From positions 1,280,001 through 1,344,000 of the forward strand of contig OZ240248.1 in the NCBI GenBank assembly GCA_965198235.1: a stretch of DNA of 64,000 nt, given 5' to 3'. Shown here one piece after another: positions 1 to 15,627 of this stretch; positions within the stretch are counted from its first letter, which is position 1, and each line of letters begins with the position of its first letter. The DNA is from Candidatus Poribacteria bacterium (GTDB lineage Bacteria > Poribacteria > WGA-4E > WGA-3G). A program made the translations under genes and the position numbers. Below the pieces are notes generated by a model. That model was given only the letters and a program-made list of their open reading frames with translations, searched no databases and was not told the origin of the DNA.

Positions 1-34
1 ATTTTCCCTCAGTGGAGTCCTTCGTCCCCGCTGG

Positions 35-94
35 CGAGGTTTCTAACCTCGCCCTTTCCCCAACAGCGGTAGGTGCGGTTTCCTAACCGCACCG
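35..94. repeat. Two REP-like palindromes
   Basis: ggcgaggtt-tct-aacctcgcc and ggtgcggtt-tcct-aaccgcacc hairpins; the first recurs at ~56321-56343 (gggcgaggtttaaaacctcgccc). Confidence 0.6.
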
Positions 95-196
95 GATCAC
101 TTCATATCCCGTCCTCTGCTCCTTAGTGGTTCACTCGCTAAGAATTTGTGATATAATTCTCCTATCTATTGAATTGAAATGGAAAGGAGAATTTAG

Positions 197-721
197 ATGG
201 GCAAACGTATACATCACCTTCGGGAAGTCAGTGAAGCAGAAGTCTCACAACTAAGGATCCTGTCTAACTCACAGACAGACTCGTATCGGAGTGTGCAGCG
301 CGCCAAGTTGATAGTCAGCATGATTGATGATGACACACTGACAGCCTCTAAAGCCGCAAAGCAAGTTGGTTTCAAATCAGAGGTTTCCGGTGCGTATTGG
401 GTCAATCGGTTCAACGAAGAAGGTGTCAAAGGTCTTTCGGATAAACCGCGAAGTGGCAAACCGCAGACGCATTCAATGCGAGTGCGGAGTCAACTCATTG
501 ATTTAGCGATGCGCAAACCTCGTCGGCTAGGTTATCCCTTCGAGGTGTGGACGCTGAAACGACTGCAAAGTGCCTTCAAGGAAAGAGAAGGGGTTCATCT
601 CTCGGATTCGACGATATGGGAGTGGTTGAAAAACGAGGGGTTGCGTTGGAAGCGTCAACAGAGCTGGTTTGGTGATGCCGAAAAACACGACGAGGCGTTT
701 GTAGAAAAAAGGGGGCGATAA
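197..721 (+). CDS. IS630 transposase, N-terminal HTH part (joined to the downstream ORF by a -1 shift)
   Basis: Motifs [20 protein letters not shown] and WTLKRL; A6G5 run at 705-715 just before the stop. Confidence 0.85.
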
Positions 722-774
722 TTGAGGCGTATACCAAGCGACCCCCTCAGACGCGTGTCATTTGTATTGACGAG

Positions 775-1338
775 ATGGGTCCGATAGCCGTGAAAACGTA
801 TCGGGGTGAGGTCTGGCAACCGGGTTTGAATCGTGCGACTTTTGAGCCGGACTACGGACGTAGAGGGAAAGTGTGGGTGCATGGCGCATTTGAACCGGCA
901 ACAGGTCAAGCGGAGATCGTGCTATCGCCTCGCAGAGACACAGCGAGTCATATTCAACTCATTGAGAAAGTGATAGATAAGTTTGCCTGCGAGAGGTGGT
1001 TACTCATTGAAGACAATCTTTCGACACATCACAGTCGTGATGTGAAGACAGCTTTATTAGCGTGGCCGGAGGTGCGGGTGCAGTTTATTCCGAAATATGC
1101 GTGTTGGTTGAACTTAATAGAACCTTGGTGGAAACAGTTGAGGTCTTTGGCATTGAAAGGTAGGCGATTTGAGACGCTGGATGAGTTGACCGATGCGCTC
1201 AACGGTGCCGTTTGTTGGTGGAATGCGCATAAATACCCTTACCGGTGGAAGAAAGAGCCGCAACAGCAACCCAGCTACAAGTTAGGTGCTTATGGGACTA
1301 GCATCGAAAAAAATATAACTCAACAACTTAGCGAGTGA
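775..1338 (+). CDS. IS630 transposase, DDE catalytic part
   Basis: DNLSTH and [14 protein letters not shown] motifs; the -1 frame is open from ~706 and carries the first catalytic Asp (VICIDE) upstream of the ATG. Confidence 0.85.
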
Positions 1339-1438
1339 ACCACTTAGTCCTGTAGGGACGATATGTTTATAGAAAAGCGTTTCCCGCTCCTCTTTGGTTT
1401 TCCATAGAGGTAGTATGCTTACAGGGTCTTTTCTATGA

Positions 1439-2293
1439 TCAATTTTCTTTGACTGGAATCGTATAACCGAATGCCTCCGATATCCTTGCTACAAAAGTCT
1501 TATCGTGTGGATCGACTGCCCGGTACCAGGCAATTAGGTAATCTGCAAGTTTGTCCGAAGAATTCGGTAATTTACGGATAGCGTTCCATCCATTAGGAAT
1601 CTTCTCGAAGATGGGTAGTAGCTGATATACTACCAACTTTTGATTATTTCTCTGCTCTCTTTCATCAATAGGACTTTCACGTAACTCATTTTCGCGTAAC
1701 GATAGCCAACTATGAAGGAATATGCCTTCGGGTAGCTGTGCTTCTTGATTATTAAGCAAGTTTTTCCAATAGTCCCTTAATGCCACTGCGTAATCAGTGC
1801 GCTTTGGGAATGCTGGATGAGTAAGCCATCGTTGGGCCATACGCCGAATGGTAAATACAGATGCGAGTTCACAAAGTGATTCATGAAACCAATTATTTGG
1901 ATTTTCTTTAAGGTTTTCATATCCCAACAGAACATGGCAAAATTCGTGAGCAAACTGGTACGCAAATTTGCACCAAAAATCATCTCGAGCAGAGATCCAG
2001 ATGGTATATGGTTCCTCTGGTGATGAACGATATAAAACCTTAGGATGATCGACTTGTGAAGGAACCACCTGAATTTTTTCATGAAAAGGAACCCAGAGCA
2101 ATCGGTTAATGTGAAAAGCGGTGTCTTGTAATAATGCAGCAATCTCGTTAGGTTGAATATTGCCCCAATCAGCCTGTGATACATGAAGTTGTATCTTAAG
2201 CATCTGCTTGTTTCCAGTCCGATGCACCTTAGTCTGCCTTTTTTTAGTTCGTTTTTTTGTGAGATGTCTAGCAGTGTCGCGTTTTTTAGCCAC
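1439..2293 (-). CDS. HExxH zinc metallopeptidase-like protein, last gene of the CBASS-strand run
   Basis: YQFAHEFCH plus downstream WFHESLCE; AGGAGG Shine-Dalgarno before GTG; basic N-terminal tail. Confidence 0.7.
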   Translation of the reverse strand: MAKKRDTARHLTKKRTKKRQTKVHRTGNKQMLKIQLHVSQADWGNIQPNEIAALLQDTAFHINRLLWVPFHEKIQVVPSQVDHPKVLYRSSPEEPYTIWISARDDFWCKFAYQFAHEFCHVLLGYENLKENPNNWFHESLCELASVFTIRRMAQRWLTHPAFPKRTDYAVALRDYWKNLLNNQEAQLPEGIFLHSWLSLRENELRESPIDEREQRNNQKLVVYQLLPIFEKIPNGWNAIRKLPNSSDKLADYLIAWYRAVDPHDKTFVARISEAFGYTIPVKEN

Positions 2294-2339
2294 TACATTT
2301 CCTCCTATCGAAACATACCACGTTACTAATGGATGCTTG

Positions 2340-3059
2340 TTAGGGGTTACTTCCCTTTAGGAGCAGTCTTAGAAATTCATCCTCATTGAAGTGACATTCT
2401 TTGTACTTCTTGCCGCTTCGACACGAACACGATCTGTTCAGATAATGTTTTATAGGTTCAACGTCGTTGAAGTGACATCTTTTGTACTTCTTGCCACTAC
2501 CACAAGGACATAAGTCGTTTCTACCGAGATTGGACTTCGCGTAATTGATCATTTCAGCAAAGTACTCTTTGATCCCTTCGGCACCATGCGAGTACTCTTC
2601 CCAATGGTCATTGCTACTTATATCAGTTCCAAATTTTTCCACGTAAGAAAGACGGTAAAGAAATGGAATCACGCGTTCGTGAAAGAAGGGTTCAATTCTA
2701 AAGGTTCGGTTATCGGGGGATTTAATACCTAGGCAACAACTATTATCCTCCGGATTGATGTGCAAATCAATAATCTCACTATTACAATTTTCAGCGATTT
2801 CTTGATACCTTTTGCCGACTTCATACACTTTCGGCCATCCGTTCATATCTAAGTCGCCTAAGCAAATCTCAACTTCGTAAACGTCGCGAATCAAGAAATC
2901 CATTTCATCAGCAAGATTACCAATTATTACTTCCTGTGATTTGTCATCGTACGCAGCACAGAAATCGAGTTCACCTACGATTTTTTGGGATTTTTCGTCG
3001 TATTGTAGGTTAGGAAAATGCACTTTTAACCATTGGATTTCATCATTGTTGATCTTCAT
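2340..3059 (-). CDS. CBASS-associated E2 (UBC-like) protein with two SEC-C Zn motifs
   Basis: PKVYE...HINPEDNSCCL (E2-like His/Cys), EYSHG, RNDLCPCGSGKKYKRCH plus a second CSCRSGKKYKECH; ATG 7 nt after the CD-NTase stop. Confidence 0.7.
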   Translation of the reverse strand: MKINNDEIQWLKVHFPNLQYDEKSQKIVGELDFCAAYDDKSQEVIIGNLADEMDFLIRDVYEVEICLGDLDMNGWPKVYEVGKRYQEIAENCNSEIIDLHINPEDNSCCLGIKSPDNRTFRIEPFFHERVIPFLYRLSYVEKFGTDISSNDHWEEYSHGAEGIKEYFAEMINYAKSNLGRNDLCPCGSGKKYKRCHFNDVEPIKHYLNRSCSCRSGKKYKECHFNEDEFLRLLLKGSNP

Positions 3060-3066
3060 AGCAAAA

Positions 3067-4035
3067 TCACCTTGCGTATAACTTCGGAGCACTTACTATT
3101 ACCGGAGCAGATTTCTTATTCCCGTTATCGTCTTTAAGTTCTCCGAAATTCTCACCAAACAACTTTCTCCACTTTCTGACGCTGGTATTGTGATCTTTGG
3201 CATCAAAAGCTTCGTTTATCTTAGAGTTGTAAAGATCGAACATTTCCCGGAAATGACGATATTTGTCTTGGTCCCAATGTCTGGTGAAACTTTCTGTGGA
3301 TAGGACTGGATTGCAAATTTCGGGCATTGAGATATTAGCCTGCAAAAAATTGTTTATCCGGTTTGAAATCGTTTTTAAAGACGTTGGAATGTCCTTAAAA
3401 TCTTCGCCCCATTCGTCACTGGAATAAACGCTGTTCCCAATGAGCGTGGTCAGGAGGATTGATTTCACGGAAAAGTTTCCTTTATGGTCACGAAGAAATT
3501 TTAACAACCGCGTATCCCGCTTTAGGTTTCCATTGGTGATTCTCGTTTTCTCGTTGAACCAATCTCTATAACCGGTGCCGTCGGTGAGTTCAAATTTATT
3601 TTCCTTGTTATTGCATATAAAATACTCTTCCTCTTGCGTAAGCCAATTCTGTTGTGTAATACATGGCACAAGATCTAGGTGAAAGTCGCCGGCATAATCG
3701 ATATAGACACATCTGGTTCTTCTATGTACCTTATCCTTATAATTGTCGTTTCCTTTCAAACAATCATAGACATCATTGATGTAGTCCTTCGGTTCTTTCT
3801 CCTCATCGTACGCCATGTACAAGAGTAGATCTGCGTCATATTCACGGGTGCCGACCGGTTTGATGATTGTTTTCAAACCGTAAGATCCTTGTCGTTCCGT
3901 TTTTTCGTATAAATCTAAATTTCCGCTCAGGAACGTATCCACAGCTGAGGAACTACTATCCAATCTTTGAAGTCTCGTTGGATTGAGGTTAACCTCTTCG
4001 GAAAGGAAATCTTGGAAATACGTTATATGCTTCAT
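3067..4035 (-). CDS. CD-NTase 2 (cGAS/DncV-like SMODS nucleotidyltransferase), intact
   Basis: QGSY...EYDAD and FHLDLVP catalytic motifs, SILLTTL, NPVLSTESF; AGGAG Shine-Dalgarno. Confidence 0.88.
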   Translation of the reverse strand: MKHITYFQDFLSEEVNLNPTRLQRLDSSSSAVDTFLSGNLDLYEKTERQGSYGLKTIIKPVGTREYDADLLLYMAYDEEKEPKDYINDVYDCLKGNDNYKDKVHRRTRCVYIDYAGDFHLDLVPCITQQNWLTQEEEYFICNNKENKFELTDGTGYRDWFNEKTRITNGNLKRDTRLLKFLRDHKGNFSVKSILLTTLIGNSVYSSDEWGEDFKDIPTSLKTISNRINNFLQANISMPEICNPVLSTESFTRHWDQDKYRHFREMFDLYNSKINEAFDAKDHNTSVRKWRKLFGENFGELKDDNGNKKSAPVIVSAPKLYAR

Positions 4036-4133
4036 TGGTCTATTTCTCCTTGTCTATCAGACTGAATAAAAAAATTAAAAATTCACATAAAATCTGTCGC
4101 TATCCGATTTTTGGATGTTAACGGGGCTAATTT

Positions 4134-5078
4134 TCATTTGTGCAATTTGTGAAAAGGCTTAAATGATTCAGCAGGATTACCCAAAAAAACCTCGCGAAGT
4201 TTAGGCAACTCATGGCGCGCTTGAAAAGCCCCCATACCTTTCAAGGAGTCAATTTCCTCTATTCCATCCAAACTAAATTTTCCTTCGGACACGTCTTCGT
4301 CAACTCTGATAACATTATCATGTCCTGCAAGAAGTTGTGCTGTTCCGAAAGACGCACTGGATTGGGCATGCATGAATACGTCAAAAAGCTTGAATGCCCA
4401 GTATGGTTTACCGAGTGGAGTTCTTCTTCCTTTGTTAACATTAAGTGGCTCGGTCGTGCAACCTAAACTCAAGACCTTCAGAGAATTCCTCGGCCAGTCA
4501 AGCACTGTAATTGCCTCAACAACAGCCATCCCTACGGGATTATTTGCCCATATGCCTCCATCTATCAAAGGGATTCCAACGGACGACTGATGAGTGGGAA
4601 AGTAAGTTGGAGCAGCTGCCGTTGCCAAAGCTACATCAACTACCCTTTCCTTATAGTCCATTTCTAATCGTGGATGATGAGCTGTTTTGTAGATGTAAAC
4701 TTTGCCATTTTCGAGATTTAACGACGGAATGACAAGTCGTTTTTTGCTATCACCTAATTTCTTATCACCAAAACAGGTTTCTAATGCCTTTTGAAGCGGG
4801 GCACTACTGTACTTGGTAGTACCCGGCCACCTGAACCAACGGTTTCCGTTGGTTCCACCAAAGATGACGGGACCAAATTCTTCGTAAAATGTCAATATTT
4901 CCTTAGCGGATAATCCCAATCCGAGCCCCAAAGCGATAATTCCACCTGTAGAGGTGCCGACGATCAGATCGAAATAATCTGCTATATTGCCTTCGATTGA
5001 ATTATCAACAGTAGCGAGAAAAGATGCTGGGCATACACCCTTAATCCCTCCCCCGTCGATTGTTAGGATACGTTTCAT
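4134..5078 (-). CDS. Patatin-like phospholipase CBASS effector (CapV/CapE type)
   Basis: DGGGIKG, GTSTG and DGG motifs; start set at ATG 5078 with AAGGAGG. Confidence 0.9.
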   Translation of the reverse strand: MKRILTIDGGGIKGVCPASFLATVDNSIEGNIADYFDLIVGTSTGGIIALGLGLGLSAKEILTFYEEFGPVIFGGTNGNRWFRWPGTTKYSSAPLQKALETCFGDKKLGDSKKRLVIPSLNLENGKVYIYKTAHHPRLEMDYKERVVDVALATAAAPTYFPTHQSSVGIPLIDGGIWANNPVGMAVVEAITVLDWPRNSLKVLSLGCTTEPLNVNKGRRTPLGKPYWAFKLFDVFMHAQSSASFGTAQLLAGHDNVIRVDEDVSEGKFSLDGIEEIDSLKGMGAFQARHELPKLREVFLGNPAESFKPFHKLHK

Positions 5079-5157
5079 TGTGCCCTCCTTAATTCCGAAA
5101 AAATTACTTTCTGTTTTTACTTGAAAGTTGTTTTCTGATACAATGTTTTCATAGGTA

Positions 5158-6327
5158 TTAGTTAATTTTGAGCACCCTTCTGAATCTATCCTGACTATCA
5201 TCATATTCATATACGAAAATCTCAGGATCTGATTTTGGCAGAAGAACCCGACCACACTCAACTGCAATTGGTGCTGGAACTGCTGGGATAATAGAGATTT
5301 GGCAAGAGTCTCCATGCGTAGATTGAATCTCGTTCAGCAATTTCCTGTATTCGCGACTGAACCCTTCTAACTGTTTACGGGATTTCAAAAAATATATAGA
5401 AGGTTCTTCAATAGTTATCTCATAAATGCTAAAACCTTCCGATTCCAACCTTTCATACCGATCACTATCAATTTTGTCACTTAGAGACAATACGACTGCA
5501 ACGTTTCTGCTGTTCTTATTGGTGTGATGAGAATTCACGACATAGCACGTTTCTGTGTCTTGTTCCTCCTCCGACCAAGACCAAGTTTGGTTTGTGTCAT
5601 CAATATTTCTGTGTGACTGGTATAAATCTGCTGGAACAGTATCACCTATGCACTTTCCCAAGAACATTAATAGAGGCATGGGACCAATGGCGAATACGGA
5701 AAGGTGTTTAATCTTTTTTTCATCTATTCCTTCCTCAAAGGACCACTTAACTTTTCGCTGAATCTCACTCGCAAAAGCCTGCCAGTACTCTGCATCGTTG
5801 TGACCATTAAAATTGTTCTTGGCGATACTAATTCCTTTTTCATCAGTCGGATATTTGGGAAACATTGCATTACGATATGCCTCGGGGTTAATCGGAACAA
5901 TTCTATCACCTATATTCACGGAGAATAATAGGACGGTAGATTTGTGAATATCCTCTGGATATCTGGTTTGAATTTCAATTCTAACCTCATGCTTCCATTT
6001 CCACTCGCTCAACAACTCTGGTGGATATTTGTCGGGTTTATCATCAATTTCCTTATGGCATTGTTGGCACAGCAGCATGAGATTAGAGAATTCAATTTGT
6101 AGATTCGCAGACTCTTCATTGCCTCTTGGACCGTCTTGACTCACGGGAATGATATGAGCTACCTCCCCAAAATTTCCATCGGTTAACGTCAGGTCATTAC
6201 GCCAAACAAGTTTGTTACAGCCACTAAATTCACAACGCCCTGCTGATTTCCCAAACAATTTCAACTTAGTATGTAGGGGAACATTTTTACGGGTAATCTT
6301 GGGTTTTACATTTCTTCTAATAGTCAT
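5158..6327 (-). CDS. HNH-SAVED nuclease CBASS effector (Cap5 type)
   Basis: GRCEFSGC...EVAHII...NLMLLCQQCHKEID HNH domain; SAVED-like HLSVFAIGPMPLLMFLG and PAVPAPIAVECGR. Confidence 0.88.
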   Translation of the reverse strand: MTIRRNVKPKITRKNVPLHTKLKLFGKSAGRCEFSGCNKLVWRNDLTLTDGNFGEVAHIIPVSQDGPRGNEESANLQIEFSNLMLLCQQCHKEIDDKPDKYPPELLSEWKWKHEVRIEIQTRYPEDIHKSTVLLFSVNIGDRIVPINPEAYRNAMFPKYPTDEKGISIAKNNFNGHNDAEYWQAFASEIQRKVKWSFEEGIDEKKIKHLSVFAIGPMPLLMFLGKCIGDTVPADLYQSHRNIDDTNQTWSWSEEEQDTETCYVVNSHHTNKNSRNVAVVLSLSDKIDSDRYERLESEGFSIYEITIEEPSIYFLKSRKQLEGFSREYRKLLNEIQSTHGDSCQISIIPAVPAPIAVECGRVLLPKSDPEIFVYEYDDSQDRFRRVLKIN

Positions 6328-6435
6328 GGGTTCGATCTCCTTATTTCCTATTATGATAGAGTTAGATTCTAACTATTCGTTGGATGATGCTAATGCTTGT
6401 GATTTGAATGATACGTAGACCTAACAGGCTTACCT

Positions 6436-7098
6436 CTAAGGTCTCCGACGAGTTATAGCATCAGGTGTTGTTTCCCTTATACGCCGTTTTACAGCTTCAA
6501 CTTGATCCATGTGGCATTTTTTATACTTTTTGTCGCTTCCACAAGGACATAAATCGTTTCTGTTAGGTTGGTGCTTTGCTAAATTTAACATTTCAACTTC
6601 ATATTCTGCCCGCCCTTTTTCGCCATGGGAATATTCGCCCCAAAGGTCATTACGGCTAGCGTCAATCCCAAATTTCTCTGTGTAAGAGAGTTGATAAAAA
6701 AATGGAATTACTAATTCAGGAAGGAAATCTTTGATGTGAAAATTCCTGTTACCCCCGTATTTGAGACTTAAGCAACACGTACTGTCATCTGGGTTAATGT
6801 GTAAATCTATGACTTCAACGTTGCACTTTTTTGCAATTTGATGATACCGTCCACCGACCTCATAAACCTTTGGCCATCCGTTTTCATCTAAATTGGCCAA
6901 GTGGATTTCAATCTCGAAAACGTCATAAATAAATCGCGCCATTTCTCTGGCATGGTCACCAATTCTCAACTCTCCTGACTCCCTATTATACGCTGTACGG
7001 ATGTCAAGTTCCCCTACGATTTTTGAGGAACTTGACTCGTATTGTAAACCCGGGAGATGTGACTCTAACCATTCGATTTCGTTAGCGGTTAGTTTCAT
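6436..7098 (-). CDS. CBASS-associated E2 (UBC-like) protein with SEC-C motif, paralog of 2340-3059
   Basis: Shares KIVGELD, NGWPKVYEVG, DLHINP-CCL, EYSHG and RNDLCPCGS with the paralog; ATG 8 nt after the CD-NTase 1 stop. Confidence 0.7.
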   Translation of the reverse strand: MKLTANEIEWLESHLPGLQYESSSSKIVGELDIRTAYNRESGELRIGDHAREMARFIYDVFEIEIHLANLDENGWPKVYEVGGRYHQIAKKCNVEVIDLHINPDDSTCCLSLKYGGNRNFHIKDFLPELVIPFFYQLSYTEKFGIDASRNDLWGEYSHGEKGRAEYEVEMLNLAKHQPNRNDLCPCGSDKKYKKCHMDQVEAVKRRIRETTPDAITRRRP

Positions 7099-7741
7099 GG
7101 CTGAAATTACCGTGCATAGGATTTACTGGGCACTACTGTTGCTGACAGAGTAGAGGCAGGACGACTTATTCTGTCGGGAACGCCTCGTAGTCCCTCATTG
7201 ATAGCTTGCTCACCCAAGCAAGGTTTTAGTGATTTTCCAACACTCTGAATATCACTCATGCCTAAAGCTTGGGTCAGATCATACTGTGCCTGCTTAAGCC
7301 ATTCCATGAAACACGTTTTTCGAATCGGATACTCTTGCCATTTGTCGGCGAAGTTTTCAAGTGGATTCACCGGATTACGTATAAGTGCCACATCATTGTT
7401 AGAATACTCAATATGACACGGCATTTCTGTGACAATCTTCAACAAAGCTTTTTGAAGATCTGCCTCATTGTCGTAGGCGTGGGCAGCGAGTGTTGTGATG
7501 ATGATAGAGATCGGTTTTGCATTTTTGTCATAGACTGATTGGTTCTTGTCAAACCAGATATCGCGGTGCCGCTTCAATATCTGAATTGACCGCTGAAGTG
7601 GGGTCTTCACTTTATATTCCGGAACATCATCAACCTGTCTTTGGATTAGGGACTTTTGAATGGCGTCGAACCTTGTTTGCATGCGACTTTGAAACCATTC
7701 TGTGAAGTGCATACGCTTATTTAGACCACAATTTCGCAAAG

Positions 7742-8581
7742 TTAAGATAAGGTTTGTCGTTGAAATTCCATAGGAGTCAAATACCCTAACGCCGAATGCG
7801 GGCGTTTCTGATGATACACCTGTGTGATAAAATGTCCGATGCGATCTCTCGCCTCGGTGATGCTTTGATAGTCATTGATGTGAACTTCTTCCTCTTTGAG
7901 CGTGCGAATGAGTCTTTCCGCATATCCGTTCTCCCAAGGCCGTCCGCGCTGTGCGACGGAAATCTCAACGCCATGTTCTTGGAGCGTTGTGATGTAGGCA
8001 CTTGAAAGATACTGCACGCCTTGATCGGAATGATGAATCTCAGGGACGCTGTGGCGTAATGCTTCTTTGAGCGGTTTGAGCGTCAGAGATTGGTTCAAGT
8101 GCTGACTGATCTGCCAAGCTTTGATGATTCGGGTGAAAACATCCATGAGCAGGCAGACATAGATGAAACGTCCATTGAGACGAACATAGGTAATATCAGA
8201 CACCCAGACCTGATCCTGACGAGAGACCTCAAGGGTTTCGAGCAGGTTGCTCCAAGGTTTTTCACCCTGAAGCGATTTTGTTGTTTGACACGCACGCTTG
8301 ACAGTGACCAAAAGATTCCTATTTTTCATCAATCGTGCGACGCGTCGGGTCCCAACGGTGTGTCCCATACGCAGTAGCAACTGCGTGATACGCCTATACC
8401 CGTATCTCGGATACCGTCCCGCAAGCGTCTCTATTTCCGATCGTAGCAGATCTTCGGACGGATCCTCTTGGGGGTGATAATAGAAACTGCTGCGGTTGAA
8501 ACCGAGTGTTTCACAAATCTCTCGCACGGAATACTCCTTGTGCAATGCCGAAATGAGGCTTCGCTTTTCGGATAAGGTCAT
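7742..8581 (-). CDS. IS3 transposase OrfB (rve integrase/DDE)
   Basis: YGYRRI, WVSDITY, HHSDQGVQY, ENGYAER, RPHSALGY; ATGA overlap with OrfA and an A8G slippery run at 8598-8606. Confidence 0.92.
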   Translation of the reverse strand: MTLSEKRSLISALHKEYSVREICETLGFNRSSFYYHPQEDPSEDLLRSEIETLAGRYPRYGYRRITQLLLRMGHTVGTRRVARLMKNRNLLVTVKRACQTTKSLQGEKPWSNLLETLEVSRQDQVWVSDITYVRLNGRFIYVCLLMDVFTRIIKAWQISQHLNQSLTLKPLKEALRHSVPEIHHSDQGVQYLSSAYITTLQEHGVEISVAQRGRPWENGYAERLIRTLKEEEVHINDYQSITEARDRIGHFITQVYHQKRPHSALGYLTPMEFQRQTLS

Positions 8582-8865
8582 TTCAACCAATCCAAAGCTT
8601 TTTTTTGGATGTCTAATGCCACGGTTAATCTCCCAACAAGCTGCTCAAGATGGGCGATACGCTTCTCGGAAACCTCACTCGACTGCTTATCAGTAGAGTC
8701 AAACAGCGTCGACGCATTTTCAAGCAACTGTCGCTTCCACTGTGAGAGTTGATTTTCGTTGAGATTATGTCGTCGACACACTTCTGCTTGGGAAGTCGCA
8801 CCGCTGAGGACTTCAAGAACAACTTCAGCTTTAAACTCAGGCGTGAATTTTCTTCGTTTCGCCAT
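8578..8865 (-). CDS. IS3 transposase OrfA (HTH)
   Basis: MAKRRKFTPEFKAEVV...QLSQWKRQ; AAGGAG Shine-Dalgarno. Confidence 0.9.
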   Translation of the reverse strand: MAKRRKFTPEFKAEVVLEVLSGATSQAEVCRRHNLNENQLSQWKRQLLENASTLFDSTDKQSSEVSEKRIAHLEQLVGRLTVALDIQKKALDWLK

Positions 8866-9502
8866 CGGATAACTCCTTTCTAATGAGATTGTATTGTAGC
8901 ACAATCTTCCTTTAGGGAGTGGTCTAAAAAACCGTAGGCAGTACACTGCATACCCTTTTGGATTACTATGGGGCCAATCAAGGTCGATCTTACAGTAGTT
9001 AGGTAGCGTATTATCCGTAATTGCAATTACTAAATCTGACCAGTTAGAGGGTGAGTAACCTCTTGATTTAAGGGATAGTTTGAATGGTTCAGCGTCTGGG
9101 ATCGCAGGCAATATATCCGCGTGGAACTGAGCACCATCTGCGTAATTCAGTGTCCAGCAGCGTCTGCTCTCTTCCGGTCGGGAATTCATGTTGTTAGCAT
9201 GGGCATAAGACTTGATTTCATGACCAACTAAATACTTTAGTCTTTCTTGGCTGACTTCAGTTTTTTGAAGGCTCAACTCGCTGACAAGGTCTATGTCATA
9301 CTCCTCAGCACCAGAAATGGGTTTTGTAACCGTGCCAATCAGAAAAGAACCTTGTGGATAAATATCAGGACTATAGCAAGTAACTATAGATTCATCCCGT
9401 TCGAGCCATGCACCAATGGATTCGTAGCGTTTTACGGCTTGTTCATAGTGATGTTCGGGGATGTCCAATGCTTCAGATATAGCCTCAAGTAGTGAGGTGA
9501 AA

Positions 9503-9598
9503 TTATACATGGGAGAATTCTCCTTCATTTTTAGGTTGGTTCGCGAGAGTGCGAACTCGATTATCATGAGTGGATTGGTTTCTACTTTGCCAGTTCAT
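9503..9598 (-). CDS. 31-aa leader ORF overlapping the CD-NTase 1 start
   Basis: AGGAGG (9606-9611) 7 nt before ATG; MNWQSRNQSTHDNRVRTLANQPKNEGEFSHV*; its last codons overlap ATG 9510. Confidence 0.45.
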   Translation of the reverse strand: MNWQSRNQSTHDNRVRTLANQPKNEGEFSHV

Positions 9599-9642
9599 TG
9601 CAAATCCTCCTATTTGATATTGTAGGAAAGATATATGTGTAT

Positions 9643-9671
9643 ATAATACCATCAATTAATTCACATGTCAA
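9643..9671 (-). promoter_or_regulatory. Sigma70 promoter of the CBASS operon
   Basis: TTGACA-17 nt-TATTAT with TGn extension on the minus strand. Confidence 0.7.
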
Positions 9672-9914
9672 GGAAAATTTAAATTTTTACTACTTTTTCT
9701 CTGAAATACATATATTTTTAAATTTTTCACATATATATTAATTTTTAATGTATAGATGAAAATTATATTATTAATAATAGTCGATAATAAAACAGATGTG
9801 AAGAAATTAGGTAAATTCCGTAAAAATCGAACGTGTTTTTTGTCTTTACTTAAAAGTTTGTTTTCTGATATACTATATTTGCATGTGTATTATCATTGGG
9901 GAGGAACAACTGTC

Positions 9915-11153
9915 ATGAAATTAGGAGAGCGTCTTCGTCTCATTCGTAAAGAGAAAAAGTTGATCCTGAAGGATTTGGGTGAACTCGCGGATTTGTCTGT
10001 GCCTTATCTTTCGAGTATGGAGCGCGGTGTTGTTAATCCTTCTGTAGAAACCCTACAAAAGGTTGCCAAAGCTTATAATATGACAGTCCAAGACCTTTTT
10101 AGTGGTGTGGAAGAATTAGGAGAATTGATACATACTACGCATCCTACAGGATTTGAATCCTTTCTAAGGGACTTCGAGTCTAGTTATGGAATTATTAGTG
10201 ATGACTGGAAGGAATTGCTGCTGAAAATCAACTTTCGCGGCAGGCAGCCGTCCTCTCAAACGGAATGGCTTGAATTATATCTTTCTCTCAGACGAATTCT
10301 TTCACCTAAGGAGGAGAAGGTGAACAATCCGAAAAAGCATATTATCAAATTGGTTCAGGATACTGTCAGAGAATATAGTTCAACCCAGGTTCCTAATTTT
10401 GGCGAAATATGCACTGGCTTGGAATTAGATGTACAAGAAGCCTCGTTACCAGACGGGATAGACGGAATGCATAGAGGAAGGACAATTTTTATTAATTCCC
10501 GGATTAAGAATGAAGAGCGTAAGCGATTTACCCAATTTCATGAAGTCACGCATTATTTGATTGAGAAGGATGGAGATCTAATCTCTAATCTTCACGATAC
10601 TACTTGGAGCCAGGATGATGGATACGAAAGGCAGTTGGAACAACTTTGTAATATTGGTGCGGCTGAGTTTTTGATGCCTAGAAAGGTATTTGCGGGACTC
10701 TATAAAGAAAGGGAGTTTAATGTCGAACTGATACCATATGCTGCGCGTTACTTTGGGAGTTCGACAATAGCGACAACTATACAACTTGCTCAAGTTGCAC
10801 CAAATTCGTGCATTACTGCTGTTTGCGAATTAATACATAGCGATCCAGAATCGTCGCAAACTCGTTTTTCTAGCGCAAAGGATAGCTCCACCAAGCAAAA
10901 ATTGCATATAGCCTATTCTGCCTCGTCCCCCTCAACTGAATATTTGTTAGCAAAATGCACAGAAATTCCTGAAGACCACTTAATCAACCAAGCATTTTCG
11001 CAAACTCAACTAGTTGGAGGGGACAGTTACGTCCCTTTTCGGAGTGGCAAGAAAATGCCTTGTTACTGTGAAGCATTGGCAGATGGCGATAGGATTTATG
11101 TATTATTCCATTTGACACCTTCGCCAAATCCTAATCAAGGGACACTTTTTTGA
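9915..11153 (+). CDS. DdrO-like XRE repressor fused to an IrrE/PprI-like metalloprotease (CapH/CapP-like regulator)
   Basis: N-terminal MKLGERLR...SVPYLSSMERG.VNPSVETLQ...NFRGRQP...WLELYLSLRRIL resembles DdrO; then RFTQFHEVTH, EQLCNIGAAEFLMP and SYVPFRSGKKM as in IrrE; start at ATG 9915 (GGAGG), internal AAGGAGG-GTG at 10320. Confidence 0.85.
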   Translation: MKLGERLRLIRKEKKLILKDLGELADLSVPYLSSMERGVVNPSVETLQKVAKAYNMTVQDLFSGVEELGELIHTTHPTGFESFLRDFESSYGIISDDWKELLLKINFRGRQPSSQTEWLELYLSLRRILSPKEEKVNNPKKHIIKLVQDTVREYSSTQVPNFGEICTGLELDVQEASLPDGIDGMHRGRTIFINSRIKNEERKRFTQFHEVTHYLIEKDGDLISNLHDTTWSQDDGYERQLEQLCNIGAAEFLMPRKVFAGLYKEREFNVELIPYAARYFGSSTIATTIQLAQVAPNSCITAVCELIHSDPESSQTRFSSAKDSSTKQKLHIAYSASSPSTEYLLAKCTEIPEDHLINQAFSQTQLVGGDSYVPFRSGKKMPCYCEALADGDRIYVLFHLTPSPNPNQGTLF

Positions 11154-11259
11154 GATTTTCCGATTGATGATATTAACTTTAAAGCACTTGAGTCGTTACG
11201 CGTGGAGACAGAGTTTTAATTGCTCTGTATGTGTGAAATCATAGATTGTTTTTACTTGA

Positions 11260-14217
11260 TTAATCAAGATACCAACTCGGGAAAGGAATACCCTTCAGTT
11301 TAAGCTTCGCTAATTCCGCGTCAAGATTGCACTTGCACTTCTTCTCACCTTGGATGCTTGGTTCTGCACAGAGCATTTCACGCAGCGTCTGCATGGATGC
11401 AAGAATACCTACATCTTTGATACCAAGCACCTCCGTCAGAATATCTGTATCCAATTCGTGTCGGATAGGGTCGTGATCACATTCATTGACTGGCAGCATC
11501 CGCTTATACTTTAACCGTTCAAAGAGGGCTTCAGCGTTTGCTAGCTGCTGATTGGAGAGTCGGCGAACATCCAGCGTTGGCAGTGTTTTTAATGTCTGCT
11601 GACGCAGCGTTCCACGCCCCATATCCTGTTTACTGCTATGTAACCAGTGGCAGAAAAAGCCAAATGTTGAATTGCACCAGAGGGTCCACGCAATTTCATG
11701 CCGCAGGTCATTGAGTAAAACATTTATCATTGAACGTACGCCAATGGAGGGTTCCTCAGTGAAGGAAGAAAGCATGGAGTTTGAAGTGAATCTCATATTG
11801 ATGTGGTAATGGGTCTTACTGTTGCAGTCTAAAGCGCGATTAACGATCGCGTTCTCATTTGAACGGGGGATCGCTGTTGCATTTGGTTCAGCCATCATTG
11901 ACCGCTGCAAGGGTGCCTCAACTTTCCATAGCGCAGGGTAGCCATCACTGTTCCGTTCATATCCCTTTACTATGATAAATGGACCGTTCTTTTTTCTGTA
12001 CAAATCTGCTGAGCCAACTTGTGCTATGTGTTGCACTTGACAAATATCAAGAGGGATAGGTTCTCTTTCCATAGGCAGATGCAGTGCTCCGGCCTTGAGC
12101 TTGTGTGCACTCTGTAGCAATGCCATTGATCGTGCCCGTGTTGCAACCCACGCAACACCATCTTTGATGGGACAGTCTAGTATCTGGCCACTCTTCGTGT
12201 TGCCAACGCTGATAATATTTCCTCCATTAGGGGCATCTTCGAGTTTTCGCGTGCCACTGCTCCGAGATATCCGATTTGCGATTTCCATTGCTTCAAGTGG
12301 TTTCTTGGGCCTCTGATTTAAGCAGACAAACGTGCCGCGTCCAGTATTTTCTCCTACGCCCTTTGTCGCAACGACGATGCATTCCGCCTTTTTTGTGTCT
12401 GCAGAGAATGCACAATCTGCAGCCTCTGCTTGTGCCATAGTTATCACAATAACATCGTGATATTCAGTTGCCCACATATCTCTAATTTTCTGTGTGATAG
12501 GTGATCTTAATACTGTCAACAGTAGAATGAAACCCATCGTCCCCCCATGCTTAAGTTTCTTGTCCGAGAGGTCAACAAAATTCGGAGCAAAGTCAGCAAT
12601 TCCATCGGATACTCTTCTATCTTTAAGTTTCAGTGCTGCCTGCATCATTTTCTGCTCTTCCTCAGAGCGGTCGCTACCTTGGAATGTAGATTTCGGTACA
12701 TCAGTGTTGCTATCTGATCCCCCTCTGGTAAACGGGGGATTTTGTATAACAATATCAAACTCAAAGTGTTGAAAAACTTGTTGGAATTTAACTACTGTGT
12801 TCTCTTTGCCGCCGATCTGTTCAGCATCCGTATCAAATAGTTTCACGTCGTCAAGCAATTCGAGGGAACCTATCGCATAACTACCGTCCTGCATAAGTCC
12901 ATAAGGTGCAGTCAGAATGCGGGTATCCGCTAGTTTGATATCCGCATACGTGCTGGCGAGAGCAGCTGCTGTCAAGTGTGTGGCATTCGGCATGACATCT
13001 GCACCGCCAATATTTTCCTTAAGCATCTTCTGGTGGATGTCCCTTCCGTTTCCACCTTGCTGTTCATATAGGGATAAAATGCGTTGGTATACGCCGTTGA
13101 GGAGTGCCCCAGTTCCACAAGCAAAATCCGCTACTTTCGGGAGTTTACCCTTAGGCAATTCAGGCATTACAAGGGTTGACAACAACGTCGCGCTTTCTGG
13201 CAGCGTATAGTTTGCCTTAACATATTTTCTATCGGTGATTAACTTTTGAAACACTATGCCCGCAAGTTCGTGGATTTGCGCGATACCGGTGTCAACGAGG
13301 TCTTTAGCTGCCTTGCACAGCAACTTTAAGATATGTTTAACCAGTTTGTCGTCTGTCGCAAGTGCCTTAACGAGTTCACGGGCATCCTCAAAGATAGGGC
13401 GGTAGTTGACTTTAAGAATAGTGTTCCAGTCTTCTATAACATCGGAATAGTCAATCGTAGAAAGGAGTTGACGGAGTGAACGGACAGATGTCATTTCTGC
13501 CTTGCCCGCGAGCGAACTCTGGAAAACGAAGGCATCGGTGATAATCAGTGCCGCCATGCGGAGGGTTTGTGTATTGAGTTTTTCTTTTTCGTCATTTTCA
13601 TCTTTAGAGAAAACCTCTTGGTGTAGGATTGACTCGATTTTCGTCCCGATGGCACGGTGATCAGTAATAGCGTTTTCAAGTAGATGGGCTGCCCTGTTGA
13701 TATTAAGTTCCATGTCCTCCGCTGCTTGTTCCAACTGTGAGTTGGGTATTGCACCGACGTGTAACGCATTGGCAATGTCTCCCACTGTGCCAGTTGTCCA
13801 CCCGTTTTCTGGGAAGTGTCCGACGGTATCCCCGAGAGTACTGACGAGTTTGTACTGTAAGTCATCCGCCTCATGGAGTTGTGGAGTAATGTCCCGTCCT
13901 GACATTCTCTTAAAACGATCAGGATATAGGATTGCCATGACATTGTTGAGGGTTTTCGCTGAGATATAGTATTCTGCTTCAAGTTCATAGACGAGTCTTG
14001 TTTCGGCTTGTTTGATAAGGTTTTTAGCATTGGTGGTAGTAGCGAATTTGGCTTCTATACCAATGGCTTCTCTACCGCGTTCAATCACGAGGGCATCAAG
14101 TTCGCTGTTGCCTTTGATGAAGGCATGAACAGCCGTTTCGACTTCCCATCCGTGGCGCATGTTTCGTAGGATATTAACCAAGTGATTTGTAATTGTCGTT
14201 TCGTGTTGATTCGGCAT
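11260..14217 (-). CDS. Type IIG-like restriction-modification enzyme (N6-adenine methyltransferase with N-terminal nuclease-like domain)
   Basis: DFACGTG (motif I), QNPPF (motif IV), N-terminal LD...IEAK PD-(D/E)xK-like motif; 985 aa. Confidence 0.75.
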   Translation of the reverse strand: MPNQHETTITNHLVNILRNMRHGWEVETAVHAFIKGNSELDALVIERGREAIGIEAKFATTTNAKNLIKQAETRLVYELEAEYYISAKTLNNVMAILYPDRFKRMSGRDITPQLHEADDLQYKLVSTLGDTVGHFPENGWTTGTVGDIANALHVGAIPNSQLEQAAEDMELNINRAAHLLENAITDHRAIGTKIESILHQEVFSKDENDEKEKLNTQTLRMAALIITDAFVFQSSLAGKAEMTSVRSLRQLLSTIDYSDVIEDWNTILKVNYRPIFEDARELVKALATDDKLVKHILKLLCKAAKDLVDTGIAQIHELAGIVFQKLITDRKYVKANYTLPESATLLSTLVMPELPKGKLPKVADFACGTGALLNGVYQRILSLYEQQGGNGRDIHQKMLKENIGGADVMPNATHLTAAALASTYADIKLADTRILTAPYGLMQDGSYAIGSLELLDDVKLFDTDAEQIGGKENTVVKFQQVFQHFEFDIVIQNPPFTRGGSDSNTDVPKSTFQGSDRSEEEQKMMQAALKLKDRRVSDGIADFAPNFVDLSDKKLKHGGTMGFILLLTVLRSPITQKIRDMWATEYHDVIVITMAQAEAADCAFSADTKKAECIVVATKGVGENTGRGTFVCLNQRPKKPLEAMEIANRISRSSGTRKLEDAPNGGNIISVGNTKSGQILDCPIKDGVAWVATRARSMALLQSAHKLKAGALHLPMEREPIPLDICQVQHIAQVGSADLYRKKNGPFIIVKGYERNSDGYPALWKVEAPLQRSMMAEPNATAIPRSNENAIVNRALDCNSKTHYHINMRFTSNSMLSSFTEEPSIGVRSMINVLLNDLRHEIAWTLWCNSTFGFFCHWLHSSKQDMGRGTLRQQTLKTLPTLDVRRLSNQQLANAEALFERLKYKRMLPVNECDHDPIRHELDTDILTEVLGIKDVGILASMQTLREMLCAEPSIQGEKKCKCNLDAELAKLKLKGIPFPSWYLD

Positions 14218-14396
14218 AATGTTCCCTTAGAATTGCTTTCAATGATGTGTGAATCTAGTGAAGTTACGGGAAAGCACCTGCCAGGTGTGGTGGCGATGCA
14301 TTTCTATAGAAATGCCATCCGTACGGGGCTGAAAAATTAACCTTGCAACTGGGCGATGTTACAAATCCTGCCAGTTGGAAAAGGACATTTGTAATG

Positions 14397-15063: not shown

Positions 15064-15627
15064 TTATAATTTGAATGTTGTATATTCGTCTGCTTCAACA
15101 CCCATCAACTCCCGGTAGGTTTCAAGTGGAATGAATGGCGTTTCGCCTTCTTGTCGATCCGCATCAAAGTAGTCGAAACAGACTTCCCATAAAACGAGGG
15201 CGTATTTACTGGTGAACTGGTTTTGCAGCCGTAGGTTCAACTTGGCGTAGACGCGCGGGTTGTGAAGTCTCAGCCGCAATGTGTGTGGGAACTGATAGAA
15301 GCAGATACCATCGTGAATACGAACCTCTGCTAAGAGATGCGCTACACCCCACTCTTGCTTTTTGTCTTTGCCGAGAATGTTCCATTTCACTTTGAAATCA
15401 GCAATAGATTCTAATATCTCTTTTAGGTAGTCATCGTTCTTGCTATCGAAACCAAGCTTCGCTGTCAATTCAACCATACTCACGCGATGGATTTCTTTAT
15501 CTGGAAGTTCCTTGTAGGCGTTGGCGAGCAGGACGTTCCATGCCCGGCGTTGTAGGAGCGACATCTTGCTCTGGACATGAATCGCCGGACTTGCTTTGAT
15601 AACATCACTAATTTCTGTTAAATTCAT
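15064..15627 (-). pseudogene. Rep_3/RepB plasmid replication initiator, 3'-truncated
   Basis: SLLQRRAWNVLL, NPRVYAKLNL, FTSKYALVLWE, YRELMGV...Y..FK; stops at the start of the second winged-helix recognition helix. Confidence 0.75.

Follow-up and report, generated by a model that had tools for sequence, protein, structure and literature searches.

We examined a 64,000-nt stretch of a Candidatus Poribacteria bacterium genome (GenBank assembly GCA_965198235.1, contig OZ240248.1, positions 1,280,001 to 1,344,000 of the forward strand; hereafter the window, whose own numbering is used throughout). It holds a locus of the CBASS type (antiphage signalling based on cyclic oligonucleotides), with two cyclases, Cdn1 and Cdn2, of the CD-NTase class (nucleotidyltransferases that resemble cGAS and DncV), two E2-like proteins (E2a and E2b), an HNH-SAVED nuclease (Cap5-like) and a patatin phospholipase (CapV-like). 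In our judgement it is fairly probable that the locus consists of two self-sufficient CBASS modules of the canonical E2-only (type II short) kind, linked tail to head in one operon by deletion of the regulator and promoter of the second module. From gene content, we assign Cdn1–E2a–Cap5 to module 1 and CapV–Cdn2–E2b to module 2. The composite reshuffles module types that are already known and does not represent a new principle of defence.

Two cyclase–E2 modules in one gene run

A listing of open reading frames (ORFs), combined with family searches in Pfam, PADLOC and NCBIfam, showed that the minus strand from 1439 to 9567 is occupied by a single co-oriented gene run (Table 1). This agrees with an initial annotation, made by a model from the sequence alone, which had proposed one run of cyclase, E2, effector and HExxH peptidase genes. 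Its further description, of two quite different cyclases each followed within 7–8 nt by its own paralogous E2 and of a locus lacking E1 and JAB genes, was likewise borne out. Cdn1 and Cdn2 could be aligned only locally, at 23–27% identity; the spacing from cyclase to E2 is 8 nt and 7 nt, and the remaining gaps are 108, 79, 98 and 46 nt; E2a and E2b are 56% identical; and neither an E1 nor a JAB protein was found by Pfam or PADLOC among ORFs of at least 150 aa in positions 1–14300. The assignment of both units to single-E2 CBASS is supported, PADLOC recovering a cyclase and an adjacent lone E2 in each.

Active-site motifs are present in both cyclase sequences: QGSF, DIDL and HADI in Cdn1, whose gene is interrupted by an insertion sequence (IS), and QGSY, DADL and HLDL in Cdn2. 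A SMODS search of the genome gave no further cyclase above the cut-off. The loop of E2a that holds its cysteines reads H100-x-N-P...C108-C109-L. Both effectors fit cyclic-nucleotide-sensing CBASS types. The HNH-SAVED protein matched solved SAVED/HNH chains (PDB 8ysq, 2e-62; 7rwk, 8.1e-44), and the patatin scored 262.5 bits, against a cut-off of 200, on the NCBIfam model CBASS_lipase ('CBASS cGAMP-activated phospholipase') and matched the CapV entries of the PDB at 3.4e-37 to 1.4e-34.

Each module occurs alone in related genomes

With E2a as the query, full-length relatives were found in 19 of 101 related genomes. An E2 profile gave matches in 24 of the 176 genomes of a phylum set, from which the loci were extracted and the window proteins mapped onto them. 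In addition, an alignment of the two E2s was searched in genome contigs and returned one true relative among 152 pattern matches, plus two matches to the SEC-C motif only. Only one cyclase family is present in 18 of the 24 E2-bearing genomes. Three of these (G054, G001 and G141) have the Cdn1 family alone in the order Cdn1–E2–Cap5, three (G087, G043 and G047) have it in the order CapV–Cdn1-like–E2, and twelve (G090, G092, G040, G028, G022, G056, G031, G029, G016, G130, G158 and G139) have the Cdn2 family alone as CapV–Cdn2–E2. Within this last set the G022 cyclase is cut by an IS, and the patatins of G130 are only 29–34% identical. Where the upstream side of single modules was fetched, most face their own capH/capP genes or a fused gene.

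The two families lie next to each other in five genomes. In the window itself (G000) a divergent regulator precedes Cdn1–E2a–Cap5–CapV–Cdn2–E2b; in G042 a divergent regulator precedes a small ORF and then CapV–Cdn1(AGS-C)–Cap5–Cdn2–E2b; G060 and G055 have a Cdn1~E2 fusion and Cap5, then capP–capH diverging from CapV–Cdn2–E2; and G155 has CapV–Cdn2–E2, then a helix-turn-helix (HTH) gene diverging from CapV–Cdn1-like–E2. The Cdn1 of G042, 519 aa long, includes an AGS-C domain (3.3e-32) and is not accompanied by its own E2. G046, whose locus ends at a contig edge, could not be assigned to either class. Four distinct arrangements in five genomes suggest that the pairing forms repeatedly. The cyclase–E2 units, whose co-occurrence elsewhere had been set as a check on the initial annotation, thus co-occur in 5 of the 24 E2-bearing genomes. 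That annotation had also placed the effectors in the middle; the order is correct, but it is merely that of module 1 (cyclase–E2–effector) followed by module 2 (effector–cyclase–E2), families that mostly occur singly.

A regulator-promoter remnant at the junction of the modules

Upstream regions of relatives share a conserved element (GTATCAGAAA...AAGTAAA...TTTTTACGGAATT) after the regulator start; in most of these regions a TTGACA-type box and a TATAAT-like box for the CBASS genes come next. The 79-nt gap between Cap5 and CapV in the window aligns with the regulator-proximal promoter element of six other regulator regions. It has neither the regulator start codon nor the TTGACA/TATAAT boxes, and the CapV ribosome-binding site comes directly after ...CGGAATT. 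The gap element scans as a plus-strand promoter (TTTACT-17-TACAAT, 5116–5144) of the same kind as that of the regulator at 9845–9874. Because this promoter remnant stays in the gap, a second regulator appears to have been deleted there. We infer that the merger arose by deletion from a G060-like ancestor that lost its second regulator and promoter; G060 and G055, with capP–capH between the modules, show the presumed earlier state.

In a consensus scan, the sole strong minus-strand promoter-like site of the run was upstream of Cdn1, at 9671–9643, and no minus-strand site was seen in the Cap5–CapV gap. Module 2 seems to depend on read-through from the promoter upstream of Cdn1, and the run is probably one transcription unit. 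In public RNA libraries, a contig from a 93%-identical relative spans 4262–5694, across the junction, which is a weak hint only, and a contig from another library joins the CapV start to the regulator region (5078 to 9908), the stand-alone form. As contigs, these runs carry no level, strand or transcript ends, and they are proof neither of transcription nor of one continuous transcript; the libraries hold mostly the IS (word shares 0.06–0.19), and parts uncovered in runs X1 and X2 were not counted as evidence.

A fused repressor–peptidase faces the CBASS genes

The gene divergent from the CBASS run encodes a fusion of an HTH repressor with an M78 metallopeptidase that carries HEVTH. Its longest ORF begins at 9756, and the likely start is the ATG at 9915, where the alignment of relatives begins. 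Residues 1–130 match full-length DdrO (PDB 6rnx, 2.2e-30) and residues 183–404 match IrrE (PDB 8slm, 3.5e-30; 3dte, 9.5e-28). In PADLOC it is recognised by capP (2.6e-24) and capH (2.4e-8), and its matches to the E. coli CapP and CapH chains are weak (7.7e-4 and 8.3e-4). In agreement with the initial annotation, a DdrO–IrrE fusion regulator therefore faces the operon. The regulator is also fused in G001, G090, G042 and G016; many congeners have two genes, of ~135 and ~280 aa. By analogy with the family, its repressor half would be cleaved upon DNA damage or in the presence of single-stranded DNA.

Between the operon promoter and Cdn1 the window has the remnant of a leader gene (Table 1). The 102-aa ORF of G042 (MRRQSRNQSTHDNRVR..., L028 15693–16001) is the first gene after the operon promoter and reached 1e-05 and 25.5 bits on the Pfam AHJR-like restriction endonuclease family, just below its cut-off of 26.1. 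A leader-like ORF start was also seen beside an AbiTii–HExxH gene pair in L035, and the G001 frame lies in the upstream region of L015.

Cyclases, E2s and a common tail motif

Among solved structures, the N-terminal half of Cdn1 is nearest to VcCdnG (PDB 9woo, 2.1e-42), followed by BdCdnG (5.1e-09) and SmCdnG (1.9e-07), and its sequence points to a CdnG-like cyclase. VcCdnG is described as a 3′2′-cyclic GMP–AMP (3′2′-cGAMP) synthase whose product activates VcCap5 (PMC12804361); by analogy, 3′2′-cGAMP is probably the product of Cdn1 as well. For Cdn2 no clade was called: all NCBIfam scores were below their cut-offs, and the PDB matches were weak and spread over SmCdnG (5.8e-13, residues 11–164), BcCdnD (2.5e-11) and BfCdnB (7e-10). 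A DncV-like cyclase beside CapV was considered and rejected, Cdn2 scoring 79.4 bits on the NCBIfam cGAS equivalog NF041078, below the cut-off of 150.

In both families, cyclases linked to an E2 have the C-terminal tail P-x-K-x-[Y/F/H]-[A/G]-x, mostly with Ala (KLYAR, KSYAR, KPYAR, KPFGR), and K318 and A321 of Cdn2 are invariant in 16 Cdn2 sequences. In the natural Cdn1–E2 fusions of G001, G060 and G055, ...YA(Q/D) is followed by an 11-residue linker and then by the first Met of the E2. The E2 processing site is probably the bond between [A/G] and x, a variant with Ala where Gly has been reported. On the side of the E2, residues H100, C108 and C109 are invariant in 21 sequences. G001 has, downstream of its Cdn1~E2–Cap5 module, a second Cdn1-like cyclase of 428 aa (L015 5959–7245), which has no adjoining E2 and no ...YA-x tail and ends in ...SPMCHEANR.

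The AlphaFold2 model of E2a (predicted local distance difference test, pLDDT, 83.1) shows a helix, four strands, the Cys loop and further helices, then the SEC-C motif. The weak top matches of this model in Foldseek are rich in UBC/UEV entries, with Ufc1 best (E 0.31, template modelling score, TM, 0.42). A complex prediction for Cdn2 with E2b scored 0.44 (runs 0.01, 0.44 and 0.77), and the best of three controls scored 0.00; the runs share at least 49% of contacts, with a partner pLDDT of at least 74. Of the solved complexes, 58 of 80 came up to the mark applied, as did 2 of the 110 mismatched pairs, and scores of 0.60 or less came from only 7 of those 80 solved complexes but from both mismatches; a complex similar to Cdn2–E2b has already been solved, and the score may partly reflect that likeness. 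The prediction lends weak support to an association of Cdn2 with E2b.

In a 20-row E2 tree, the family of the neighbouring cyclase required 2 changes, against a mean of 6.5 after shuffling, and 0 of 500 shuffles were as low, although such clustering arises readily where genes are neighbours and genomes are related. The tree leaves out L001 (frameshifted E2), L024 (duplicate), L032 (partial) and the later loci L045–L049. The E2s group by cyclase family in the tree, but the earlier claim that they are dedicated is uncertain, since both families share one tail motif.

Apparent exchange of effectors between cyclase families

A 16-row CapV tree, which leaves out the CapVs of L045–L049, showed no clustering by cyclase family (4 changes, against a shuffled mean of 3.7–3.9). 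Because the E2 tree clusters and the CapV tree does not, the cyclase–E2 pair appears to move as a unit while effectors swap between families. CapV orthologues 65–85% identical to that of the window adjoin either cyclase family. The window CapV, beside Cdn2, is nearest to the CapV of G042, which is 85% identical and stands beside Cdn1-AGS-C; G087, G043, G047 and G155 combine CapV with Cdn1-like cyclases; and G155 has a CapV with each cyclase family. In G042 the Cap5 gene is between Cdn1-AGS-C and Cdn2, giving one CapV and one Cap5 for two cyclases. This exchange of effectors argues against a fixed scheme in which the Cdn1 signal acts on Cap5 and the Cdn2 signal on CapV, and the two-signal, two-effector system proposed in the initial annotation was not supported by these comparisons.

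Two alternatives to a plain merger concern the signals. The first, which we regard as unlikely, is that the cyclases are two sensors answering different phage cues with the same or a cross-reacting dinucleotide, so that either would fire both nuclease and lipase, and that the pair has been selected for the breadth of its sensing. The swapping of effectors, the one CapV and one Cap5 shared by two cyclases in G042 and the CapV beside each family in G155 would all fit, as would the reported response of VcCap5 to several dinucleotides at higher doses (PMC12804361). However, recombination in islands can place mismatched genes side by side, the names of CapV relatives in the PDB give cGAMP or cUMP-AMP as activator, and the kinship of the genomes inflates the apparent recurrence. 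The second, an integrated system with two different nucleotides, one effector for each, dedicated E2s and selection as a unit, appears quite improbable. It would account for the low identity and different best PDB relatives of the two cyclases, the grouping of E2s by cyclase family, the adjacency of both families in five E2-bearing genomes in four arrangements and the single strong promoter of the window, but it is at odds with the ungrouped CapV tree, the close CapV relative beside the Cdn1-AGS-C of G042, the four genomes with CapV beside Cdn1-like cyclases, the tail motif common to both families and the 18 genomes with one family only.

An apparently recent insertion in Cdn1

The element that splits Cdn1 has the hallmarks of the IS3 family: orfA and orfB with an A8 slippery run between them, an rve DDE transposase, TG...CA ends (TGTAC.../...CTTCA) and a 3-bp target duplication (CAG at 8946–8948 and 7700–7702). 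Removal of the IS and one CAG in silico brought the Cdn1 parts into frame (...PKGYA / EWFQ...). In public contigs of runs X15 and X18 an IS-free joint leads from 7699 to 8946 with a 3-letter overlap; the X18 contig has 1773 nt and 2 other letters, and that of X15 has the same joint with 27 letters on its shorter side. Because these contigs join 7699 directly to 8946, the intact allele exists in nature. A second copy of the IS elsewhere on the chromosome is 100% identical over bases 1–1243 and, with intact alleles persisting, the insertion looks recent. With Cdn1 split, module 1 is, as read from the sequence, without a cyclase in this genome, and transcription downstream of the IS is probably impaired.

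At least 11 places in the genome are similar to this IS3-family element. In G022, two IS-truncated Cdn2 copies with identical scores (L023 and L024, on two contigs) keep residues 158–322, followed by an intact E2, and the IS there is related to that of the window (orfB 69–70% identical). Since the Cdn2 copies of G022 are cut too, IS strikes on the cyclase gene recur in the genus.

It is very unlikely that the locus is a decaying remnant without function in this strain, with Cdn1 killed, the only promoter blocked and module 2 silent: the IS does separate the promoter from every gene downstream, only 31 codons of the leader ORF are left, the setting includes IS630-like, DDE-transposase and Rep_3 remnants and G022 carries IS-cut Cdn2 copies, but the downstream ORFs are all full length with their catalytic motifs kept, the identical second IS copy indicates a recent insertion, IS-free alleles persist in two runs, and weak internal promoter-like sites or read-through out of the IS could allow expression.

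Observations that weigh against a plain merger

Several observations weigh against our reading of the locus as two canonical modules merged by deletion. The first is the frequency of pairing. Adjacency of both families was found in five genomes, where 11 and 17 carriers in a set of 176 would lead one to expect ~1 (one-sided Fisher p 0.0015, G046 left out), a figure that overstates the case because of the kinship of the genomes and the arrangement common to G060 and G055. Given this excess over independence, adjacent pairing may be selected and not accidental. The second is the fit to known E2-CBASS. The E2a model had 0 Foldseek hits in the PDB at E ≤ 0.001, and phmmer and a 16-sequence E2 profile found only SEC-C peptides in the PDB, and not SmE2; the cyclase tail has Ala rather than the 'highly conserved' Gly of E2-CBASS, and at 322 aa Cdn2 is short, whereas E2-CBASS cyclases are reported to be long (PMC12948482). 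The third is transcription. The promoter scan is a consensus match that gave 23 sites in total, against 20.5 in shuffles (standard deviation 4.8), and weak sites matching 9 of 12 positions are present at 6393–6366 and inside CapV; given a scan total in line with that of shuffles, an internal promoter for module 2 is conceivable. Finally, the HExxH gene follows an E2 in three places (the window, G031 and a contig of run X2), so that it may have a role.

A bolder interpretation builds on the pairing, and we hold it only tentatively, as an unlikely one. The Cdn1- and Cdn2-family modules would be a selected pair of differently triggered cyclase–E2 sensors that rely on the same code for tail recognition and supply a nucleotide pool, common or cross-reacting, that fires both nuclease and lipase; the pair would have formed repeatedly, in the four arrangements of the five genomes, and in the window and G042 it would have become a single operon under one damage-sensing regulator.

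The HExxH gene and the surroundings of the locus

Of the 101 genomes, only G041, G003 and G031 had orthologues of the HExxH protein with more than 70% identity. The G031 gene comes after the E2. The HExxH–E2b–Cdn2 adjacency recurs in run X2, where a contig of 2480 nt matches 1345–3796 at ~94.5% identity. In G041 and G003 the orthologue comes directly after an AbiTii-domain gene (Pfam 3.2e-40; AbiTii and HExxH at L034 2406–3326 and 1489–2349 in G041, and at L035 539–1447 and 1501–2355 in G003), and in G041 a CoiA-like nuclease gene is next. Neither the E2a query nor the E2 profile detected an E2 in these two genomes. AbiTii–HExxH may form a defence module in its own right, of two or three genes. 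Paralogues at 31–49% identity have apparent signal peptides and dockerin-like tails and are encoded elsewhere in their genomes.

The HExxH protein belongs to no NCBIfam or PADLOC family, and its model (pLDDT 73) had no Foldseek match at E ≤ 0.001, the best by TM being ERAP2, an M1 peptidase (TMq 0.45, probability 0.47). Its candidature as a stand-in for a Cap3-like trimming peptidase was rejected as unsupported, its closest orthologues following AbiTii in genomes with no detected E2. The gene is probably a defence-island passenger or neighbour and not a core CBASS part. Its inclusion in the operon system by the initial annotation was not supported, since it is not a consistent member and has orthologues beside AbiTii in G041 and G003.

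The setting of the locus is mobile and island-like (Table 1). The 985-aa methylase-like protein on the right, which is convergent with the regulator, has weak matches to BREX PglX and MADS methylases, and in G054, G001 and G042 it is again found beside the regulator. On the left, a short stretch at ~1344–1385, which lies after the IS630-like gene and before the 3′ end of the HExxH gene, shows a huge summed contig depth in runs X15 and X18: the bin 1300–1590 reached 33,796 (X15) and 91,788 (X18), against 11–58 in the next bins, and many different loose ends start there. The stretch resembles a short repeat of very high abundance, and a hairpin, GTCCTGTAGGGAC, lies within it at 1347–1359.

Table 1. 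Features of the double CBASS locus and its flanks, in window coordinates.
Feature	Position	Strand	Evidence and remarks
IS630-like transposase in two frames	197-1338	+	left of locus
HExxH...E metallopeptidase-like protein, basic N-terminal tail	1439..2293	-	Peptidase_M78 sub-threshold: E 0.0083, 16.4 bits vs cut-off 22
E2b, 239 aa, catalytic loop as in E2a	2340..3059	-	PADLOC E2 4.5e-28; SEC-C 2e-12, two stretches
Cdn2, CD-NTase, 322 aa, end ...SAPKLYAR	3067..4035	-	SMODS 5.4e-30; PADLOC cyclase 7.4e-118
Patatin phospholipase effector (CapV-like), 314 aa from ATG at 5078	4134..5078	-	Patatin (Pfam) 5.2e-28
Cap5–CapV junction, 79 nt	5079..5157	.	regulator-promoter remnant on + strand, 5116-5144
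HNH-SAVED nuclease effector (Cap5-like), 389 aa	5158..6327	-	SAVED 2.5e-45; HNH 2.4e-05; PADLOC endonuclease effector 9.2e-122
E2a, 220 aa	6436..7098	-	PADLOC E2 1.1e-26; SEC-C 4.4e-10, one C-terminal SEC-C zinc motif
Cdn1 C-terminal part, end ...VVPSKSYAR	7107..7702	-	PADLOC PDLC00780 1e-59
IS3-family insertion sequence, 1243 bp	7703..8945	-	orfA (HTH_Tnp_1) and orfB (rve)
Cdn1 N-terminal part (CD-NTase, GS and DxD motifs)	8946..9510	-	PADLOC PDLC00770 8.2e-70; PDB 9woo 2.1e-42; reaches up to target-site copy
Leader-gene remnant, 31 codons	9503..9598	-	full 102-aa AHJR-like ORF in G042; homologous frame at same place in G001
Best promoter-like site of operon, TTGACA-17-TATTAT, 11 of 12	9643..9671	-	consensus scan; TTGACA...TATTAT/TATAAT arrangement also upstream in relatives
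Regulator promoter-like site, TTTACT-18-TATACT, TG before -10	9845..9874	+	consensus scan; conserved before relatives' regulators
Fused HTH repressor and M78 metallopeptidase (DdrO-IrrE / CapH-CapP type), 412 aa	9915..11153	+	Pfam HTH_3 2.1e-12, Peptidase_M78 1e-13
Eco57I-type N6-adenine methylase-like protein, 985 aa	11260-14217	-	Pfam 2.2e-06; NPPF motif
Rep_3 (plasmid initiator) fragment	15064-15627	-	right flank
DDE transposase	15945-16958	+	right flank

Discussion

The modules of the window resemble described CBASS in their parts. As in SmCdnG–SmE2 of Serratia marcescens (PMC12948482; PDB 8hsb), a lone E2 stands right after the cyclase with no E1 or JAB, the catalytic Cys is in a loop after the beta-sheet, the cyclase tail is the likely capture site, and fusions exist. 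SmE2 was reported to cut off a C-terminal GFP while bonding covalently to the cyclase tail, and the same source describes natural cyclase–E2 fusions, a highly conserved C-terminal Gly and long E2-CBASS cyclases, 73.65% of them in clade G (PMC12948482). In contrast to that system, the E2s here carry one or two SEC-C zinc motifs at the C-terminus, the conserved Gly of the tail is replaced by Ala (sometimes Gly) and one more residue, Cdn2 is short and not clearly of clade G, and two cyclase–E2 pairs are in one operon. In the available portions of the literature containing both 'SEC-C' and 'CBASS', no link of SEC-C to an E2 was found.

The classical Vibrio CapV operon has Cap2 (E1–E2) plus Cap3. 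Module 2 shares with the CapV phospholipase CBASS (PDB 8zr9 and 9kh7; PMC12480259) the effector-first order CapV–cyclase–E2 and a CapV that passes the CBASS_lipase cut-off, and differs from it in that Cdn2 is below the cGAS cut-off and the accessory gene is a lone E2. Module 1 is like VcCdnG–VcCap5 (PMC12804361; PDB 9woo) in the match of the Cdn1 N-terminal half and in its HNH and SAVED effector; unlike there, an E2 lies between cyclase and Cap5, and Cdn1 is broken by an IS. Related CdnG–Cap5-type systems include the Cap5 proteins of Asticcacaulis and Lactococcus (bioRxiv 10.1101/2021.08.31.458341). For PDB 8YSQ, 8YSC, 9KH6 and 9WN0, no relevant paper was found in the literature.

The regulator, divergent and composed of an HTH repressor and an M78 peptidase, is like CapH/CapP of E. 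coli MS115-1 and DdrO/IrrE of Deinococcus (PDB 6rnx, 8slm, 3dte and 7t5t). It differs from E. coli CapH/CapP in being one fused protein rather than two separate ones, is nearer to DdrO/IrrE (~1e-30) than to E. coli CapP/CapH (~8e-4), and appears to control two CBASS modules. The CapH/CapP preprint places these genes upstream of and opposite to CBASS of types I–III, lists 15 CBASS with an apparent CapH–CapP fusion, and reports that single-stranded DNA and DNA damage stimulate cleavage and that DNA damage acts as an inducer (bioRxiv 10.1101/2022.04.27.489752). Two CBASS at one locus under one regulator are known from the DdvS/DdvA island of Myxococcus xanthus (PMC11506125). There, an extracytoplasmic function (ECF) sigma factor drives a type I and an E1E2/JAB type II system from separate promoters, alongside a CRISPR system, whereas two E2-only modules, an apparent single operon and a repressor–peptidase fusion are found here. 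Single-E2 CBASS (PMC12948482), CapH–CapP fusions (bioRxiv 10.1101/2022.04.27.489752) and co-regulated CBASS pairs (PMC11506125) have thus all been published. The initial annotation had not recognised the combined architecture as described. Indeed, no paper reporting a pair of E2-only modules within a single operon was found in a literature search that did not cover the supplementary tables of surveys, the Myxococcus island being nearest, but all types of part are already published.

On the preferred reading, that of two merged modules, the deletion would have taken away the own regulator and promoter of module 2, leaving both modules to hang on the single strong promoter upstream of Cdn1, which faces the fused DdrO/CapH repressor and IrrE/CapP peptidase. 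By inference from the families concerned, DNA damage or single-stranded DNA would lead the peptidase half to cut the repressor half and the operon to be switched on. Each E2 would then trim and covalently capture the tail of its neighbouring cyclase, between [Y/F/H]-[A/G] and x, and so prime it. Upon infection the cyclase would make a cyclic dinucleotide (for Cdn1 probably 3′2′-cGAMP), with DNA cutting by Cap5 and/or cleavage of membrane lipids by CapV as the expected outcome.

For E2-only CBASS, which have been little studied, the genus provides a naturally reshuffled series. Its members contrast cyclase and E2 as separate or fused proteins, CapH and CapP as separate or fused, and the E2 with an AGS-C domain in its place; they present each effector beside either cyclase family, a shared tail motif with Ala for the reported Gly, and SEC-C on the E2. 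These natural alleles bear on how an E2 recognises its cyclase, on the signal specificity of the effectors and on cross-talk between modules.

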